Assembly: GCA_963844935.1 (NCBI GenBank)
Contig: CAWJQH010000003.1
Coordinates: forward strand, 172,430-236,429
Direction: 5' to 3'
Length of the DNA stretch: 64,000 nucleotides
Source: an uncultured Bacteroidales bacterium
GTDB taxonomy: Bacteria > Bacteroidota > Bacteroidia > Bacteroidales > VadinHA17
The notes under the pieces were generated by a model. It was not told the origin of the DNA. It ran no database searches and worked only from the letters and a program-made list of their open reading frames with translations. Shown piece by piece: positions 2,450 to 29,771 of this stretch. The position numbers and the translations under genes are program-made. The stretch's first letter is position 1, and each line of letters begins with the position of its first letter.

Positions 2450-4276
2450 ATGAAGAACCAACTCAGGAGTGCAGCAACGGTAACCGGCAGGAACATGGCC
2501 GGTGCAAGAAGTCTCTGGCGGGCCAACGGCATGAAAGAAGAACACTTCGGTAAACCGGTCATTGCCATTGTCAACTCATTTTCCCAGTTCGTTCCGGGGC
2601 ATGTCCATCTGCACAGTATTGGTCAGGTCATTAAGGAGGAGATCGGGAAACATGGCCTTTTCGCAGCTGAATTCAATACAATAGCCATCGATGACGGAAT
2701 TGCGATGGGCCACGAAGGGATGCTCTATTCCTTACCCTCCAGGGAACTCATTGCCGACAGTGTCGAGTATGTGTGCAACGCCCACCGGGCAGATGCAATG
2801 ATATGTATCAGTAACTGCGACAAGATCACTCCCGGTATGCTGATGGCTGCCATGAGGCTGAACATACCGGCGGTTTTTGTTTCGGGAGGCCCGATGGAGG
2901 CCGGGAATCACAATAACAGGTCGCTTGACCTGATAGATGCGATGGTGTCTGCTGCCGACAGCACCGTGAGTGATTCAGACCTGAATGATATTGAAATGGC
3001 TGCCTGTCCTACCTGCGGGTCATGTTCAGGCATGTTCACGGCGAATTCAATGAATTGCCTGAACGAAGCGCTGGGCCTTGCACTTCCGGGCAATGGAACA
3101 ATAGTTGCCACCCACCGGAACCGCATGAGACTGTTTGAAAGAGCAGCGGGGCTGATTGTGGACCTGGCGAACAGATACTACTCAGAGGGTGATGACACAG
3201 TACTTCCAAGGTCAATTGCAACCAGGGAAGCCTTTAAAAACGCCATGTCGCTTGACATTGCAATGGGAGGATCGACAAACACCGTTCTTCACCTCCTGGC
3301 AATAGCGCATGAAGCCGGTGTTGATTTTTCAATGAAGGATATTGATGAACTTTCCCGGGAAGTCCCCACCATATGCAAAGTCTCCCCCAGTTCACATTAC
3401 CATATCCAGGATGTAAACCGTGCCGGCGGTATTTTTGCCATTCTTGGAGAATTGGAGCGAAACAATCTGATAGACAGCTCTGTAAGAAGGATAGACTATC
3501 CTACTCTTCATGAAGCAATTTCTGAATGGGATATTTCCGGAGATAATGCATTGCCCCTCGCATTTGATTACTGCAAAAGCGCCCCGGGAATGAAGAGAAG
3601 CCTTGAAATGGCTTCGCATGATACTCTTTACGACACGCTTGATACTGACCGGAAAAACGGATGCATAAGAAGTGTAAAATATCCTTATAACAAGGAAGGC
3701 GGCCTTGCTGTCCTTTACGGAAACATTGCGAAAAACGGCTGTATAGTCAAAACCGCAGGCATCGACCCTTCAATGTTTACATTTTCAGGCCATGCGGTGA
3801 TCTTCGAATCCCAGGAAGAAGCCGTGGAAGGAATACTGAATGATACTGTGGGCGCAGGAGAAGTTATCGTGATCAGGTACGAAGGTCCGAAAGGAGGGCC
3901 AGGTATGCAGGAGATGCTTTACCCTACATCATATCTGAAATCCAGGGGGCTTGACAGGAAATGTGCATTGATAACCGATGGCCGCTTTTCAGGAGGCACC
4001 TCGGGATTGTCTGTCGGTCATATCTCTCCGGAAGCAGCAGCAAAAGGAGGAATTGCAATTCTCAGGACAGGTGATCAGGTTGATATTGATATAGCAAACC
4101 GGAAGATAAATGTAAACCTTTCTGATAATGAGATCATTAAAAGGCATCAGGAGGAGGAGGCAAAGGGAGAAATGGCCTACAGGCCGAAAAACCGGCGGCG
4201 TGAAATACCATCTTCGCTGAAAGCTTATGCTGCAACGGTAAGTTCAGCTGACAGGGGGGCGGTGAGGATAATATGA
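2450..4276 (+). CDS. ilvD: dihydroxy-acid dehydratase
   Basis: [42 protein letters not shown] (Fe-S cysteines) and TDGRFSGGT. Track ORF starts at 2435; ATG 2450 (MKNQLRS) is preferred. Confidence 0.95.
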
Positions 4277-14127: not shown

Positions 14128-14135
14128 TATTTTTG
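14128..14135 (+). promoter_or_regulatory. -7 promoter motif TATTTTTG
   Basis: Exact TAnnTTTG match 20 nt upstream of the aromatic leader ATG, with TTTG at 14111-14114 upstream. Confidence 0.45.
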
Positions 14136-14155
14136 TAAGCCGGTAAGAGAACAAA

Positions 14156-14221
14156 ATGAATAGCTTACACAAGAATTTTAACCTCTATTACTATTTCTGG
14201 TTTTATTTTGAAAGCCGGTAA
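14156..14221 (+). CDS. aromatic amino acid operon leader peptide (MNSLHKNFNLYYYFWFYFESR)
   Basis: 21-codon ATG ORF containing 4 Phe, 4 Tyr and 1 Trp. Eight consecutive aromatic codons (YYYFWFYF) sit at positions 11-18, and a terminator hairpin follows 41 nt later. Confidence 0.75.
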   Translation: MNSLHKNFNLYYYFWFYFESR

Positions 14222-14262
14222 GGGGGATTGTTGTGTACAGATAATAGAAATTATATGAAAGC

Positions 14263-14290
14263 AAGGGCCCCCGGAAAAGGGCCCTTTTTT
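14263..14290 (+). terminator. attenuator terminator of the aromatic leader
   Basis: AAGGGCCC (14263-14270) pairs with GGGCCCTT (14279-14286) across an 8-nt loop, followed by a T-run to 14290. The pheA ATG is at 14307. Confidence 0.7.
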
Positions 14291-14306
14291 GTTAATGAAC
14301 TTTGAG

Positions 14307-18333: not shown

Positions 18334-18341
18334 TATTTTTG
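18334..18341 (+). promoter_or_regulatory. -7 promoter motif TATTTTTG
   Basis: Exact TAnnTTTG match 17 nt upstream of the his leader ATG. Confidence 0.45.
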
Positions 18342-18358
18342 CATCGAACCAGGAAAAC

Positions 18359-18415
18359 ATGTCATTAAACACGTTACATCATCATCATCTTCATACTTGC
18401 ACTCAGGCGAGGTAA
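18359..18415 (+). CDS. his operon leader peptide (MSLNTLHHHHLHTCTQAR)
   Basis: 18-codon ATG ORF in which 5 of 6 consecutive codons are CAT (His). An antiterminator-capable segment overlaps its 3' end and a terminator follows. Confidence 0.8.
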   Translation: MSLNTLHHHHLHTCTQAR

Positions 18416-18446
18416 GAATGGTGTAGTGTAACCATAAATATAACAG

Positions 18447-18478
18447 ACCCGTCTGAGCAGATCAGGCGGGTTTTTTTT
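18447..18478 (+). terminator. attenuator terminator of the his leader
   Basis: 10-bp stem ACCCGTCTGA (18447-18456) / TCAGGCGGGT (18462-18471) with one G-U pair and a GCAGA loop, followed by T8. Confidence 0.8.
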
Positions 18479-18513
18479 CCGTATGGTTTGCTCAGACTAT
18501 AACAAAAGAGAAA

Positions 18514-24806: not shown

Positions 24807-25393
24807 ATATAGATTTTAAAAAGGGTAACGGTCTTGTTCCTGTTATCATTCAGGACAACACGACCATGCAGGTACTCATGCTCGGGTTTATGAATGAAGA
24901 GGCTCTTTCAAAAACAGAGCAGGAGGGCAGGGTCACATTCTTCAGCAGGAGCCGCAATATGCTGTGGACCAAAGGAGAAACATCAGGCAACTACCTCTAT
25001 GTAAAAGAGATACGCACCGACTGCGACAGTGATTCAATTCTTATCCTGGCTGATCCGGCAGGCCCGGTATGTCATACCGGATCATTCTCATGCTTCGGAG
25101 ATGATACTGCCAGGGGATTTTTATATAAGCTGGAAGGGATTATCAGTCAAAGAATTGATAATGATACGGAAGGTTCGTATACAAATAAAATCTTCCGGAA
25201 GGGAATCAACAGGATTGCACAGAAGGTGGGCGAGGAAGCGGTGGAGCTGGTAATAGAAGCCAAGGATGATGACACCGGTCTGTTCAAAAACGAAGCCGCC
25301 GACCTGCTGTATCATCTGCTTATTCTTCTGAAGGCTAAATCAGTAAGCCTGTCAGATATAGAAAAAGTATTGTCTGAAAGGCACAGGAAATAA
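24800..25393 (+). CDS. hisIE: bifunctional phosphoribosyl-AMP cyclohydrolase / phosphoribosyl-ATP pyrophosphatase
   Basis: N-terminal HisI ([28 protein letters not shown]). C-terminal HisE ([22 protein letters not shown]). Confidence 0.92.
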
Positions 25394-25463
25394 CAGTTTT
25401 GGGCCTCGTGTCGGTAAAAGGTTAAAAAAATAAATACCGGACTTTATATTTATGAATAATTGT

Positions 25464-25471
25464 TATATTTG
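25464..25471 (+). promoter_or_regulatory. -7 promoter motif TATATTTG
   Basis: Exact TAnnTTTG match only 6 nt upstream of the trp leader ATG, which implies a very short or absent 5' UTR. Confidence 0.4.
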
Positions 25472-25477
25472 CATCAG

Positions 25478-25522
25478 ATGAAGACAAAAATATTATATAC
25501 CTGGCGCTGGTGCAGCTCATAA
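25478..25522 (+). CDS. trp leader peptide (MKTKILYTWRWCSS)
   Basis: 14-codon ATG ORF with two TGG codons separated by one codon (W-R-W). Alternative pairings and a terminator follow, then the TrpB-like gene. Confidence 0.7.
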   Translation: MKTKILYTWRWCSS

Positions 25523-25575
25523 GATGAAGCTGTGATTCAAGCCATTATATAATATCATAAGATAATTATGCATAG

Positions 25576-25604
25576 AGGCACGCTGATCACAGCGTGCCTT
25601 TTTT
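25576..25604 (+). terminator. attenuator terminator of the trp leader
   Basis: Perfect 10-bp stem AGGCACGCTG (25576-25585) / CAGCGTGCCT (25590-25599) with an ATCA loop, followed by T6. Confidence 0.8.
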
Positions 25605-25629
25605 ATTTATTAACCTTAATTAAACAGCT

Positions 25630-26994
25630 ATGGAAAAGATTACCAAAATTCTGTTAAGCGAAAACGAAATGCCCCGGCAGTGGTACAATATTGTTGCTGA
25701 TATGCCAAACAAGCCGTTGCCGCCGCTGAACCCCGCCACCGGTAAGCCGGTGGGCCCGGAAGATCTGTCGGTCATTTTTCCGATGGAGCTTATAAAACAG
25801 GAAGTATCGGCTGAGAGATACATTGATATCCCTGATGAGGTACTCGATCTGTACAGGACCTTTCGCCCCTCACCTCTTTTCCGGGCACGGAACCTTGAAA
25901 AGGCCCTGGGAACAAAGAGCAGGATATACTACAAATATGAGGGCGGTAATTATTCAGGCTCTCATAAGGCAAATACTGCCATCCCGCAGGCATATTACAA
26001 TAAAATGGAAGGCGTAAGGCGGATAACAACAGAGACAGGAGCCGGTCAGTGGGGAAGCGCAATGAGCTTCGCATGCAACCACTTCGGACTTGAACTGCTT
26101 GTATTCATGGTAAAAGTCAGTTACAATCAGAAACCCGGGCGCAAGCTCTTAATGAATACTTACGGTGCCAGGGTCGTTCCGTCGCCAAGCACAATGACCG
26201 CTGCCGGAAGGAGGGTGCTTGAACTCGATCCTGAGTCACCGGGAAGTCTTGGCATCGCCATTTCCGAAGCAATGGAGATTGCTGCACAGGATCCGTACAC
26301 AAAATACTCGCTCGGCAGTGTGCTTAACCATGTTATTCTTCATCAGACCATTATAGGTCAGGAGGCATTGCTCCAGATGGAAAAAACCGGTGACTACCCC
26401 GATGTGGTGATCGGATGCTTCGGCGGGGGATCAAATTTCTCCGGAATTGCATTTCCATTCCTGCGCGAAAACCTGAATAACGGGAAAAAGACTAGGCTTG
26501 TAGCTGTCGAACCTTCCTCCTGTCCCAAGCTGACAAAAGGAAAATTCACGTACGATTTCGGTGATCAGTCAGGCATGACTCCTCTATTGCCCATGTACAC
26601 GCTGGGTCATAATTTCATTCCGGACAAGATCCATGCGGGGGGTCTTCGTTATCATGGTGCCGGCGTCCTCGTCAGCCAGCTGCGCAAGGACGGATTTGTC
26701 GAGGCAAAAGCCAAGCAGCAGCGTGAATGCTTCGAAGGAGGTATTCTCTTCGCCAGAACGGAAGGTATCCTTCCTGCACCTGAATCGTCATATGCCATTG
26801 CCGGCGCTCTTGATGAAGCAAGGAGAGCGGACATTGAAGGTGTGTCAAAGACAATTCTTTTCAATCTCAGCGGCCACGGTCATTTTGACATCTCTGCCTA
26901 TGAGAAGTATTTCGAAGGCAACCTGCCTGACCATGAAACCACGGCAGAGGAGATAGAAAAGTCCCTTTCGGAGCTGAAACTACCTGTTACCTGA
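25630..26994 (+). CDS. trpB2: TrpB2-type tryptophan synthase beta-like PLP enzyme
   Basis: 454 aa with the N-terminal extension typical of TrpB2 (MPRQWYNIVADMPNKPLPPLNP), the GSHKANTA PLP-lysine motif, and GCFGGGSNFSG. No trpA or other trp genes are adjacent. Confidence 0.85.
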   Translation: MEKITKILLSENEMPRQWYNIVADMPNKPLPPLNPATGKPVGPEDLSVIFPMELIKQEVSAERYIDIPDEVLDLYRTFRPSPLFRARNLEKALGTKSRIYYKYEGGNYSGSHKANTAIPQAYYNKMEGVRRITTETGAGQWGSAMSFACNHFGLELLVFMVKVSYNQKPGRKLLMNTYGARVVPSPSTMTAAGRRVLELDPESPGSLGIAISEAMEIAAQDPYTKYSLGSVLNHVILHQTIIGQEALLQMEKTGDYPDVVIGCFGGGSNFSGIAFPFLRENLNNGKKTRLVAVEPSSCPKLTKGKFTYDFGDQSGMTPLLPMYTLGHNFIPDKIHAGGLRYHGAGVLVSQLRKDGFVEAKAKQQRECFEGGILFARTEGILPAPESSYAIAGALDEARRADIEGVSKTILFNLSGHGHFDISAYEKYFEGNLPDHETTAEEIEKSLSELKLPVT

Positions 26995-27131: not shown

Positions 27132-29771
27132 TCAGCTGCACTTAGATGTGCCGCAGTCGCTGCAGATGAGGCAACCCTCCTGGTAAACCAGGTTGGTGGA
27201 ACCGCATGTGCCGCACTTGCCCTTGGCCTTTGTTCCGTTGGGGATGTAACGCTTCAGCGAGCGCTCAATTCCGTTCTTCCATGTGTTGATGGATTCGCTG
27301 TCGAGCTTCATCGATGACACCAGCTCGACCACATCCTTGGCCGGCATCCCGTAGCGCAGCACACCTGATATCAGCCTGGCGTAATTCCAGAACTCAGGCT
27401 TGAACATATGAGACAGTCCCCCGAGAGTGTTCTTGTAACCGTACTTATCGGTGTACTGGAAGTCGTACCGGGTATTACCCGCATCGTCCTTGTTCTTGAT
27501 GATCTTTCCCTTGACAATGCTCTTGGGTATTGGGAACATCTCGTCATCCTGGAGGCCCGTGAAGATCTCATAAGGTACACCGTCCTTCAGCCCCACAAAG
27601 GCAATCCACTTCTCTTCATTATTCTGGAAGCGGAGTACGTCGGCCTCAAGCACCTTGGGCCTGATCGGGGACCAGTCCTGTTTCTTGTCCTCCTTGTTCG
27701 ATACAAGCACTCCTGCCCTCGAGCCGTCGCGGTAAACCGTTGCTCCCTTGCATCCTTCCTTCCACGCAGTTAGATAGAGCTCGGAGACAAGCTCTTCCTT
27801 TGCATCTGCAGGAAGGTTGATTGTCACGCTGATCGAGTGATCCACCCATTTCTGAATGGCTCCCTGCATGCGCACCTTGGCCATCCAGTCAACATCATTG
27901 GAGGTGGCCTTGTAGTAAGGCGATTTCTCAACAATTGTATTGATCTCCTCTTCGGTCATGCTCCTTACCTGTTCGTAGTCATAACCGTTCTGCTTCATCC
28001 ACTCGATGAACTTATGATGGAATACCACAAATTCTTCCCAGTGGTCGCCCACCTCGTCGGTGAAGCTCACCGTCACATCCTTGTCATTCGGATTCACCTT
28101 GCGGCGCCGCTTGTAGAAAGGCAGGAACACCGGTTCAATACCCGATGTTGTCTGGCTCATCAGGCTTGTTGATCCTGTCGGAGCGATTGTCAGCAGGGCA
28201 ATGTTGCGTCTGCCGTGTTTTTCCATCTCGGCGTACATCTCAGGATCAGCCTCGCGGAGACGGTTGATGAAAGGATTGTTACGTTCTCTTTCCTTGTCGT
28301 ACATCGGGAAAGCACCCCGCTCCTTTGCCATCTCGGTGGATGACCTGTATGCTTCAATGGCAAGTGTACGGTGCACACCGACTGAAAACTCTGTTGCCTC
28401 GTCGGTTCCGTACCGCAAACCCAGGGCAGCAAGCATGTCTCCCTCGGCGGTGATGCCGATGCCGGTACGTCTTCCTTCCTCGGTCTTATGCCGTATATTT
28501 TCCCACAGGTTCCGTTCAACAAGTTTCAGTTCCGCAGGTTCAGGATCATTGTCGATCTTGGCTATGATGGAATCTATCTTCTCCTGCTCAAGGTCGATGA
28601 TGTCATCCATGATCCTTTGTGAGAGATGTACATGCTCCCTGAACAGCTTATAGTCAAATGAGGCTTTTGGGGTAAAGGGGTTCTTGACATACCCGAAGAG
28701 GTTGATTGCAATCAGCCGGCAGCTGTCGTACGGGCAGAGCGGGATTTCGCCGCACGGATTCGTTGATACTGTCTCATAGCCCAGGTCGGCATAGCAGTCA
28801 GGCACGCTCTCGCGCTTGATTGTATCCCAGAAGAGCATCCCAGGCTCAGCTGATTTCCACGCATTATGGACTATCTTGTTCCAGAGCTTGCGTGCATCAA
28901 TCTCCTTAACGAATTTCGGATTTTCTGATTTGATCGGATACTGCTGGCGGAAGCTTCTGCCTTTGATCACCGACTCCATGAAGTCGTCTGTTATCTTCAC
29001 CGAGACGTTTGCGCCCGTGACTTTTCCTGCCTCAAGCTTAGCGTCGATAAAACTTTCGGCATCAGGATGCTTGATTGATATTGACAGCATGAGTGCGCCG
29101 CGGCGGCCGTCCTGGGCCACCTCGCGGGTTGAGTTTGAATAGCGCTCCATGAAAGGCACCACGCCCGTTGAGGTGAGCGCGCTGTTGAGCACCGGCGAGC
29201 CCTTGGGGCGTATGTGCGAGAGATCATGACCGACTCCGCCTCGGCGTTTCATGAGCTGCACCTGCTCCTGGTCGATCTTCATTATCCCGCCGTAGGAATC
29301 GGAATCGCCTTTGTTGCCTATGACAAAGCAGTTCGACAGCGAAGCGATCTGGTAGTCATTGCCTATTCCGGTCATCGGTCCGCCCTGCGGAATAATATAT
29401 TTGAAATCCTTAAAAGCCTTATAGATGGTTTCTGCCGGAAGCGGATTCGGGTACTTCAGTTCAATGCGGTGTATCTCTGAAGCAAGGCGACGGTGCATGT
29501 CGTCCGGAGTTTTTTCGTAGAGATTTCCAAATGAATCCTTCAGGGCATACTTGCTTGCCCATACCTTGGCTGCCAGGTCGTCACCGCCAAAGTACTCGCG
29601 TGTTGCCTTTATAGCATCCTCATAGAGGTAAGTGGTTTGTTCACTTGTCCCTTCCGGCATGGTCTCCTTCTCCGCCAATGTCTCTTCCTTTTTCAACTTC
29701 TTCTCCTCTTTTTTAATCATCTCCTTCTCGTTAGGGGCGACGGATGGCATGTGGACAAATGAATCTCCCAT
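27132..29771 (-). CDS. nrdJ: class II (adenosylcobalamin-dependent) ribonucleotide reductase
   Basis: 879-aa RNR core with TNPCGEIPL (active-site Cys-Glu) and YDSCRLIAINL. It lacks a class I partner beta subunit nearby. The C-terminal Cys-rich zinc ribbon CGTCGSTNLVYQEGCLICSDCGTSKC is typical of many class II enzymes. Confidence 0.85.
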   Translation of the reverse strand: MGDSFVHMPSVAPNEKEMIKKEEKKLKKEETLAEKETMPEGTSEQTTYLYEDAIKATREYFGGDDLAAKVWASKYALKDSFGNLYEKTPDDMHRRLASEIHRIELKYPNPLPAETIYKAFKDFKYIIPQGGPMTGIGNDYQIASLSNCFVIGNKGDSDSYGGIMKIDQEQVQLMKRRGGVGHDLSHIRPKGSPVLNSALTSTGVVPFMERYSNSTREVAQDGRRGALMLSISIKHPDAESFIDAKLEAGKVTGANVSVKITDDFMESVIKGRSFRQQYPIKSENPKFVKEIDARKLWNKIVHNAWKSAEPGMLFWDTIKRESVPDCYADLGYETVSTNPCGEIPLCPYDSCRLIAINLFGYVKNPFTPKASFDYKLFREHVHLSQRIMDDIIDLEQEKIDSIIAKIDNDPEPAELKLVERNLWENIRHKTEEGRRTGIGITAEGDMLAALGLRYGTDEATEFSVGVHRTLAIEAYRSSTEMAKERGAFPMYDKERERNNPFINRLREADPEMYAEMEKHGRRNIALLTIAPTGSTSLMSQTTSGIEPVFLPFYKRRRKVNPNDKDVTVSFTDEVGDHWEEFVVFHHKFIEWMKQNGYDYEQVRSMTEEEINTIVEKSPYYKATSNDVDWMAKVRMQGAIQKWVDHSISVTINLPADAKEELVSELYLTAWKEGCKGATVYRDGSRAGVLVSNKEDKKQDWSPIRPKVLEADVLRFQNNEEKWIAFVGLKDGVPYEIFTGLQDDEMFPIPKSIVKGKIIKNKDDAGNTRYDFQYTDKYGYKNTLGGLSHMFKPEFWNYARLISGVLRYGMPAKDVVELVSSMKLDSESINTWKNGIERSLKRYIPNGTKAKGKCGTCGSTNLVYQEGCLICSDCGTSKCS

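Follow-up and report, generated by a model that had tools for sequence, protein, structure and literature searches.

A probable tryptophan attenuator with a predicted near-leaderless leader peptide ahead of trpB2 in uncultured Bacteroidales

Introduction

How is a stand-alone trpB2 gene regulated when it lies behind a short open reading frame (ORF) with two tryptophan (Trp) codons, a set of competing hairpins and a promoter box that almost touches the start codon? The question is raised by a 64,000-nt stretch of DNA from an uncultured Bacteroidales bacterium (VadinHA17; GCA_963844935.1, contig CAWJQH010000003.1, positions 172,430-236,429, forward strand), the whole of which we call the window. 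An earlier note on this DNA had proposed a leader-peptide attenuator with Trp codons, and our analysis supports that proposal through a conserved ORF, covarying helices and the spacing of the promoter box. The element is very likely a ribosome-mediated attenuator through which charged tRNA-Trp governs read-through into trpB2, and a divergent member of the Bacteroid-trp class. A literature search for TrpB2 together with Bacteroidetes returned no prior description, and no paper describing leaderless leader peptides in Bacteroidota was found in the literature searched.

Sequences and alignments

Related loci were collected by a scan based on TrpB2 with one genome per species, which gave 80 loci, all from metagenome-assembled genomes of uncultured Bacteroidales, Bacteroidota or Rikenellaceae. 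Alignment A1 holds 74 leader sequences and is the basis of the column pairing counts and of a covariance model. Since this first set had been selected via TrpB2, a gene-blind scan of metagenome contigs was added as a check, using a DNA pattern that consists of the leader ORF and the CTGTG element only and ignores the downstream gene.

A conserved leader ORF linked to trpB2

The leader and the gene that it precedes are as follows.

25478..25522 (+): leader ORF, read from the sequence, with ATG at 25478 and TAA at 25520-25522; 14 codons encoding MKTKILYTWRWCSS and a stop
25630..26994 (+): trpB2, encoding a TrpB-like pyridoxal phosphate enzyme of 454 aa (NF009057, 710 bits against a cutoff of 366; TIGR01415, 625.9 bits)

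The reading of the ORF, with TGG codons at 25502-25504 and 25508-25510, is the same as in the earlier note and is conserved among the relatives. TGG-NNN-TGG is invariant across the 74 A1 sequences, in frame with a conserved start and stop, and so the absence of a conserved TGG pair, which would have spoken against an attenuator, was not what we found. In 73 of 74 sequences a start codon (ATG in 71, GTG in 2) is found at a constant distance of 24 nt upstream of the first TGG, and every leader has an in-frame stop. The codon between the two TGGs is variable (S, R, C, W, L, T, P or A), while the TGGs themselves never change in either genome or metagenome leaders. The other invariant positions of A1 are CTGTG, the terminator core and the G of the start codon. 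Stop codons fall into two classes, with ORFs of 14-16 codons and of about 24 codons, and a terminating ribosome would cover the antiterminator strand in both. The residues that follow the Trp codons read W.W(R/C)SS and stop here, WWRTS and stop in E. coli, WWWRA in C. diphtheriae and WWWRP in B. thetaiotaomicron; the recurrent Arg codon may be functional or a by-product of pairing, and we favour neither option.

The element lies directly 5′ of trpB2 in 73 of the 80 related Bacteroidales loci. The covariance model built from A1 gives the leader of the window 144.8 bits, and this is the only copy that it detects in the 64 kb; across all 80 genome loci it finds one copy in each locus that carries the element. 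Extra leader copies were also sought in these loci, including ahead of the aro genes in L002, L074 and L078, and none occurs within the 3-kb flanks. Minus-strand matches of the model were rejected as products of the palindromic terminator. The gene-blind pattern matched 119 metagenome contigs, 107 of which have trpB2 starting 155-190 nt after the leader ATG, the encoded proteins ranging from 95% down to 55% identity to the TrpB2 of the window. Eight of the remaining 12 contigs end too early to judge and four are chance matches of high G+C content. Within the loci sampled, leaders of this subtype go with trpB2 alone. Because hisIE, the upstream neighbour in the window, precedes the element in just 14 of the 73 genome loci, the element belongs to trpB2 and not to the his operon.

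Some relatives have lost the leader. In L002, L074 and L078 (around 2900-3001) trpB2 follows directly on a DAHP synthase/chorismate mutase gene with neither leader nor terminator, and in L028, L031 and L032 (around 2870-2980) a terminator alone remains after the upstream gene, with no leader ORF. Expression of trpB2 at the end of an operon for aromatic amino acids is therefore possible as well.

Mutually exclusive RNA helices

Downstream of the start codon, the leader RNA of the window can form the following helices.

25490..25505 (+): 5′ strand of P1, AUAUUAUAUA..UGGC, which includes the first Trp codon; present in the minimum free energy (MFE) fold and in the consensus fold
25541..25555 (+): 3′ strand of P1, GCCA.UAUAUAAUAU; P1 is the outer helix that encloses the inner hairpin
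25512..25533 (+): P2, the inner hairpin, GCAGCUCAU (25512-25520), loop AAG and AUG.AGCUGU (25524-25533)
25529..25537 (+): 5′ strand of the antiterminator, GCUGUGAUU, which pairs with 25585-25593
25575..25604 (+): intrinsic terminator, found by terminator scan and fold, with an 11-bp G+C-rich stem (25575-25585/25590-25600) and loop AUCA (25586-25589)

P2 has nine pairs and one bulged A, as had been noted by eye, except that its 3′ strand reaches one base further, the ninth pair being G25512-U25533; the stop codon of the leader (UAA, 25520-25522) sits at its apex. The antiterminator pairs GCUGUGAU(U) at 25529-25537 with (G)AUCACAGC at 25585-25593 through eight Watson-Crick pairs and one G-U pair. 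Its GCUGUGAU core (25529-25536) is complementary to AUCACAGC (25586-25593), which makes up the terminator loop and the first four bases of the terminator 3′ arm; complementarity, folding and conservation all agree with the earlier description of a helix that invades the loop and 3′ arm of the terminator. A further pairing in the antiterminated fold joins GCC (25542-25544) to GGC (25577-25579), and the same GCC pairs with the first UGG in P1. The terminator had been described as followed by T6; the terminator is present, and the run of six T (25599-25604) includes the last base of the stem, the tail after 25599 being T5-A-T3. trpB2 starts 25 nt after this T-run. These helices are mutually exclusive, since the 3′ strand of P2 shares bases with the 5′ strand of the antiterminator, whose 3′ strand in turn shares bases with the terminator. 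The RNA thus holds anti-antiterminator, antiterminator and terminator helices placed for selection by a stalled ribosome of the trpL type.

Conservation of these helices was counted over A1.

P1: A1 columns 34-48 x 82-96, 13 pairs, 87.9% paired, 5 changed on both sides
P2: A1 columns 53-61 x 67-76, 9 pairs, 89.6% paired, 4 changed on both sides
Terminator: A1 columns 123-135 x 140-151, 96.5% paired, 7 changed on both sides
Antiterminator helix: A1 columns 71-78 x 136-143, 96.3% paired, with A-U to U-A switches at two positions (3 and 9 sequences)

Taken together, P1, P2 and the terminator are 91.4% paired against 25-51% in controls with slid partners, and 16 pairs are changed on both sides, a number reached by one of 500 shuffles. 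Their covariation score of 0.220 compares with 0.04-0.09 for slid partners and was reached by none of 500 shuffles. The antiterminator including GCC:GGC is 96.9% paired, against 26-46% in slid controls; within it, CTGTG of the antiterminator strand is invariant in the 74 sequences, the terminator loop TCAC nearly so, and GCC:GGC is 98.6% paired and almost invariant. The 1:2, 2:3 and 3:4 pairings of the original structural description therefore stand, at 90-97% paired, and that description missed the outer helix and the GCC:GGC clamp. A conserved GAUAU/GAUAA stretch (A1 columns about 104-112, window 25561-25570) lies between P1 and the terminator, outside all four helices; it has no consensus pairing and forms varied small hairpins in single-sequence folds.

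The segment 25472-25612 folds at -45.3 kcal/mol, against -27.1 +/- 3.6 kcal/mol for shuffled sequences (z = -5.05; 0 of 200 shuffles as good). Competition between the two states was modelled on nascent RNA by masking the part under a stalled ribosome (upstream of 25524 in the window) and shortening the 3′ end. The consensus fold of the masked, shortened RNA is GCUGUGAa:uUCACAGC plus GCC:GGC. For the window sequence so masked, the antiterminator is the MFE structure up to a 3′ end at 25596 (-20.5 kcal/mol) and the terminator wins at 25599 (-23.4 kcal/mol). Across A1 the antiterminator helix is in the MFE structure of the masked, shortened RNA in 70 of 74 sequences, and the terminator is in that of the completed RNA in 66 of 74. 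The equilibrium consensus fold with only the stalled region masked still gives the terminator, the antiterminator appearing only when the 3′ end is shortened as well.

Promoter box and predicted transcription start

Two features mark the 5′ end of the leader.

25464..25471 (+): Bacteroidetes sigma-A '-7' box TATATTTG (consensus TAnnTTTG), ending 6 nt before the leader ATG
25476..25478 (+): predicted transcription start, from the position of the box; the 5′ untranslated region (UTR) would measure 0-2 nt

As the earlier note had seen, TATATTTG is the sole exact TAnnTTTG, here checked over 25300-25700; no other exact box occurs between the hisIE stop and the trpB2 ATG, including the gap from terminator to ATG. 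In 61 of the 74 genome leaders 5 nt separate the box from the ATG, in two (the window and L003) 6 nt do so, and 11 lack a proximal box. For the 108 metagenome leaders the figures are 90 at 5 nt, five more at 4 or 6 nt and 13 without a proximal box. The five spacer bases between box and ATG are not conserved, and positions -34..-32, counted from the A of the leader ATG, are enriched in TTG. Other genes of the window have exact boxes 11-81 nt before their ATG. A sigma-70 promoter scan, which is irrelevant to this phylum, gave two sites, no more than shuffles give, and was set aside.

Differential RNA sequencing of F. psychrophilum placed the sigma-A box at -12..-5 (PMC9723704), and the classical Bacteroides promoter elements are numbered '-7' and '-33' (PMC7366714). 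Under either numbering, the predicted start of the leader transcript is the first base of the ATG or a position 1-2 nt 5′ of it. In the two Bacteroidota for which maps have been published, 3.7-5.5% of mRNAs are leaderless (PMC9723704, PMC7366714). The fixed spacing of box and ATG therefore gives good support to a transcript predicted to be leaderless or to carry 1-2 nt before the AUG, and a leaderless or near-leaderless ORF is, on this evidence, a predicted, conserved and unusual feature of the element. The near-leaderless transcript that had been suggested for the window thus extends to its relatives as a predicted start, with the box near-fixed (4-6 nt from the ATG) at 63 of 74 genome and 95 of 108 metagenome leaders.

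Genomic neighbourhood and other candidate leaders in the window

The genes around the element are the following.

27132-29771: nrdJ, convergent to trpB2
upstream, stop of the last gene at 25393: hisB-H-A-F-IE

As the downstream nrdJ is convergent, trpB2 is monocistronic in the window. TrpB2 probably makes Trp from indole and serine without TrpA. The terminator scan found no + strand intrinsic terminator between the hisIE stop (25393) and the trp leader; transcripts of the his operon should therefore enter the attenuator and either end there or, when Trp is scarce, reach trpB2. In such read-through transcripts the leader ORF would have an internal position. Probably, then, the same terminator also ends incoming his-operon transcripts.

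Two further candidate leaders were seen in the window, neither of which is matched by Rfam.

14129-14291 (+): candidate aromatic leader; ORF 14156-14221 encodes MNSLHKNFNLYYYFWFYFESR and a stop and is rich in aromatic residues; terminator GGGCCCCCGGAAAAGGGCCC followed by T6; 5′ of an operon of pheA (prephenate dehydratase, PDT), an aminotransferase, tyrA (prephenate dehydrogenase, PDH) and DAHP synthase/chorismate mutase
18334-18480 (+): candidate his leader; ORF 18359-18415 encodes MSLNTLHHHHLHTCTQAR and a stop, with five His codons; terminator CCCGTCTGAGCAGATCAGGCGGG followed by T8; directly 5′ of hisG (18514), the first gene of hisGDCBHAF-IE

The aromatic candidate has a TATTTTTG box about 19 nt before its ATG and is thus not leaderless; in the his candidate a TATTTTTG box lies 17 nt before the ATG.

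Proposed mechanism

Transcription would start at the AUG of the 14-codon ORF or 1-2 nt before it, to judge from the promoter geometry. With no ribosome on the leader, or with one that reaches the stop codon at 25520-25522, P1 would form, its GCC pairing with the first UGG; P2 would form and hold GCUGUGA; and the terminator would fold and stop transcription at about 25604. The structure assigned to this OFF state is conserved and covaries in the alignment. When Trp is scarce, the ribosome would stall with UGG 25502 or UGG 25508 in its A site and cover the mRNA to about 25515-25521, melting P1 and the 5′ strand of P2; the extent of mRNA under the stalled ribosome is that of a standard ribosome footprint. 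The freed GCUGUGAU would then pair with the loop of the terminator and the beginning of its 3′ arm while both are leaving the polymerase, and the freed GCC with GGC at the base of the terminator 5′ arm, so that the full terminator stem would be delayed and the polymerase would read into trpB2. The pairing of this ON state is conserved; the stalling, the footprint and the kinetic competition we infer from the classical trpL model.

Discussion

We have described a conserved leader that would place trpB2 of many uncultured Bacteroidales under the control of charged tRNA-Trp. Several observations weigh against this account or parts of it. The start site, the 3′ end and the response to Trp are all predictions. 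The antiterminator leaves part of the terminator 5′ arm free, and a 6-bp lower stem (GGCACG/CGUGCC) could form, which makes the efficiency of antitermination uncertain; the complete terminator is thermodynamically favoured by 3-5 kcal/mol, and the model therefore relies on kinetics. The GCC:GGC clamp, being almost invariant, carries no evidence from covariation. RF01692, the Rfam model of Bacteroid-trp (gathering score 49 bits), has no match in 25300-25800 even at E <= 10. Seven of the 11 genome leaders (of 74) that lack a proximal box have an exact box 17-41 nt upstream, so a leaderless start is not obligatory in all lineages, and the spacing of 6 rather than 5 nt in the window predicts 1-2 extra 5′ nucleotides.

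In one alternative the attenuator is real and its ORF is translated mainly from leadered transcripts, made by his read-through or from an upstream start, the proximal box being no working promoter or the start lying inside or beyond the ATG. Transcripts of the his operon must enter the leader when no + strand terminator separates it from the hisIE stop, the boxes 17-41 nt upstream offer other starts in the lineages that have them, the 5′ UTRs of seeds from Bacteroides and Parabacteroides measure about 20 nt, and leaderless mRNAs are rare in the phylum. We nevertheless consider it unlikely: the exact box stands at one offset in 61 of 74 and in 90 of 108 independent leaders while the spacer bases are free, the position of TTG at -34..-32 agrees with transcription starting on the A of the ATG, hisIE is upstream in 14 of 73 loci only, and the intergenic region of the window holds no other exact box. 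It is extremely unlikely that the hairpin and T-run are merely the terminator of the his operon, with the W-R-W ORF and the upstream pairings arising by chance. This is indeed the first terminator after hisIE, and the three relatives in which a similar terminator directly follows the upstream gene without a leader ORF look much as such an explanation would have it; yet ORF and helices are conserved, with covariation, in 73 genome and more than 100 metagenome loci, 59 of the 73 lack hisIE upstream, and the loop TCAC and its partner GTGA are conserved and covary, although a plain terminator needs neither.

Sensing of Trp without translation, by a TRAP-like protein, a T-box-like reading of uncharged tRNA or a direct ligand, would leave the ORF incidental. 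An RNA so structured and conserved might suggest it, but the invariant positions are a start codon, two in-frame UGGs and in-frame stops around a free middle codon, no Rfam T-box or riboswitch matches 25300-25800 even at E <= 10, and by eye no array of (G/U)AG triplets is present in 25478-25604; such sensing is very unlikely. An additional action in trans, like that of rnTrpL and peTrpL in Sinorhizobium, might be exerted by the 14-aa peptide or by the terminated RNA (about 127 nt) and would be compatible with the role in cis. S. meliloti provides the precedent (PMC6614838, PMC7298713), and sequence is conserved beyond the needs of pairing, as in the GAUAU stretch at 25561-25566. We give this addition a small chance, for the conserved stretches are mostly explained by overlapping alternative helices and the weak matches to the small RNAs GibS and FopS come from the terminator and AU-rich flanks only.

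Read as a Trp attenuator, the element has several consequences. For annotation, RF01692 misses a large conserved subfamily, present in no fewer than 73 species-level genomes and over 100 metagenome contigs, and the Rfam Bacteroid-trp model also misses the two other candidate attenuators of the window. The fixed link of leader and trpB2 supports a role in Trp supply for an enzyme whose function in bacteria is debated. The conserved spacing of promoter and AUG offers a testable case of regulatory leaderless translation where leaderless mRNAs are rare and initiation is atypical. Bacteroidota are a phylum without Shine-Dalgarno pairing; here a 5′-terminal AUG fixed 24 nt from the first UGG would let the first ribosome load as the RNA leaves the polymerase, and this pioneer ribosome, not a later one, would read the Trp codons while the terminator is made. 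That leaderless initiation is a selected, working part of Trp attenuation in many Bacteroidota is possible, and we suggest it tentatively. If true, the trpB2 subfamily would be a handle on leaderless translation and on transcription-translation coupling in Bacteroidota, and there would be in vivo evidence for TrpB2 as an enzyme induced by Trp starvation, probably for indole salvage.

Comparison with known leaders

The window element resembles E. coli trpL in having two Trp codons and then Arg, alternative 1:2, 2:3 and 3:4 pairings and an intrinsic terminator. It differs in phylum, in lacking the Shine-Dalgarno-led ORF of E. coli, in its extra outer helix and in the target of the antiterminator, which in E. 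coli pairs with the terminator 5′ arm and here with the loop and 3′ arm, plus the GCC:GGC clamp. A pairing with the terminator 5′ arm like that of E. coli was sought in the window element, and only the 3-bp GCC:GGC, with no convincing longer pairing, was found. The Rfam model of the E. coli type, RF00513 (Trp_leader), scores 21.1 bits (E = 0.077) over 25501-25605, below its gathering score of 41, and relatives reach 31.7 bits; these weak matches do not amount to membership, because they stem from a shared UGG..UGGCGCA motif and the terminator.

With the leaderless attenuators of Deinococcus, Corynebacterium and Mycobacterium the element shares an ORF that begins at, or 1 nt from, the 5′ end of the transcript, in our case by prediction. 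D. deserti has 14 predicted leaderless leader-peptide attenuators, that of trpEGD with a start site at -1 among them (PMC4007540); the ilvB leader of C. diphtheriae (PMC5784534) and the Cys leaders of mycobacteria (bioRxiv 10.1101/834739) are further cases. Start sites in these genera were measured, whereas that of the window is inferred; leaderless mRNAs are common in their phyla, unlike here, and the promoter type differs.

The closest likeness is to Bacteroid-trp (RF01692), which its original description calls 'a loosely conserved hairpin'; the motif has at least two UGG codons and precedes trpB and trpE (Weinberg et al. 2010, PMC2864571). At gathering scores Rfam finds nothing in the whole window and nothing in 20 related loci. 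Matches to sau-6072, GibS, FopS and other small RNAs at E <= 10 in 25300-25800 were rejected, since the terminator hairpin and AU-rich flanks drive them; those to GibS and FopS reach 22-23 bits against gathering scores of 56-115. The Bacteroid-trp scan that the earlier note had proposed thus fails to match the window, while the kinship that the note had asked about is supported by architecture equal to that of the published seeds and by a profile alignment. A leader of the WWW type ahead of trpB2 in a relative (L129) scores 36.8 bits with RF01692 over the full length of the model. In an nhmmer search, the A1 sequence profile and the Microscilla seed NZ_AAWS01000005 align from one end to the other (34.7 bits), and four other Bacteroid-trp seeds match weakly over the part from ATG to UGG; the database of seeds is tiny, so that here the bit score counts and the E-value does not.

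Features of the class are found throughout the element. It comes from the same phylum, Bacteroidetes, and stands 5′ of a Trp-synthesis gene, here the TrpB2 paralogue; its short ORF has two or more conserved UGG codons and, as in the seeds, starts MK(T) or MR(T) (AUG AAA/AGA ACA). A long AU-rich hairpin carries the UGGs in its 5′ strand and surrounds an inner hairpin, an arrangement that corresponds to P1 and P2 with their covariation, and the intrinsic terminator begins AAAGGC... as it does in the seeds. When the seeds are taken with their flanks, the 3′ strand of the inner hairpin is again complementary to the terminator loop and the start of the 3′ arm (GUCGUGAC with GUCACGAC; CUGUGAA with UUCACAG; GUCGUAAG with CUUGCGGC in Parabacteroides). 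Near-leaderless transcription had been thought unusual for an attenuator, a view that is not upheld within this class, as TAnnTTTG stands 4-8 nt ahead of the AUG in many seeds from Flavobacteriia and Cytophagia; Bacteroides and Parabacteroides seeds, with their longer 5′ UTRs, differ.

Unlike the known Bacteroid-trp leaders, the trpB2 clade has mostly W-x-W and not WWW, GCUGUGA and not GUCGUGA, and a distance from ATG to first UGG fixed at eight codons, and it regulates a stand-alone trpB2 rather than trpE or canonical trpB operons. The element is, as judged by its sequence, a divergent member of the Bacteroid-trp class that lies beyond the reach of the current RF01692 model. Current understanding is not overturned by it: the class is a known one, to which we add a previously unannotated trpB2 subfamily.

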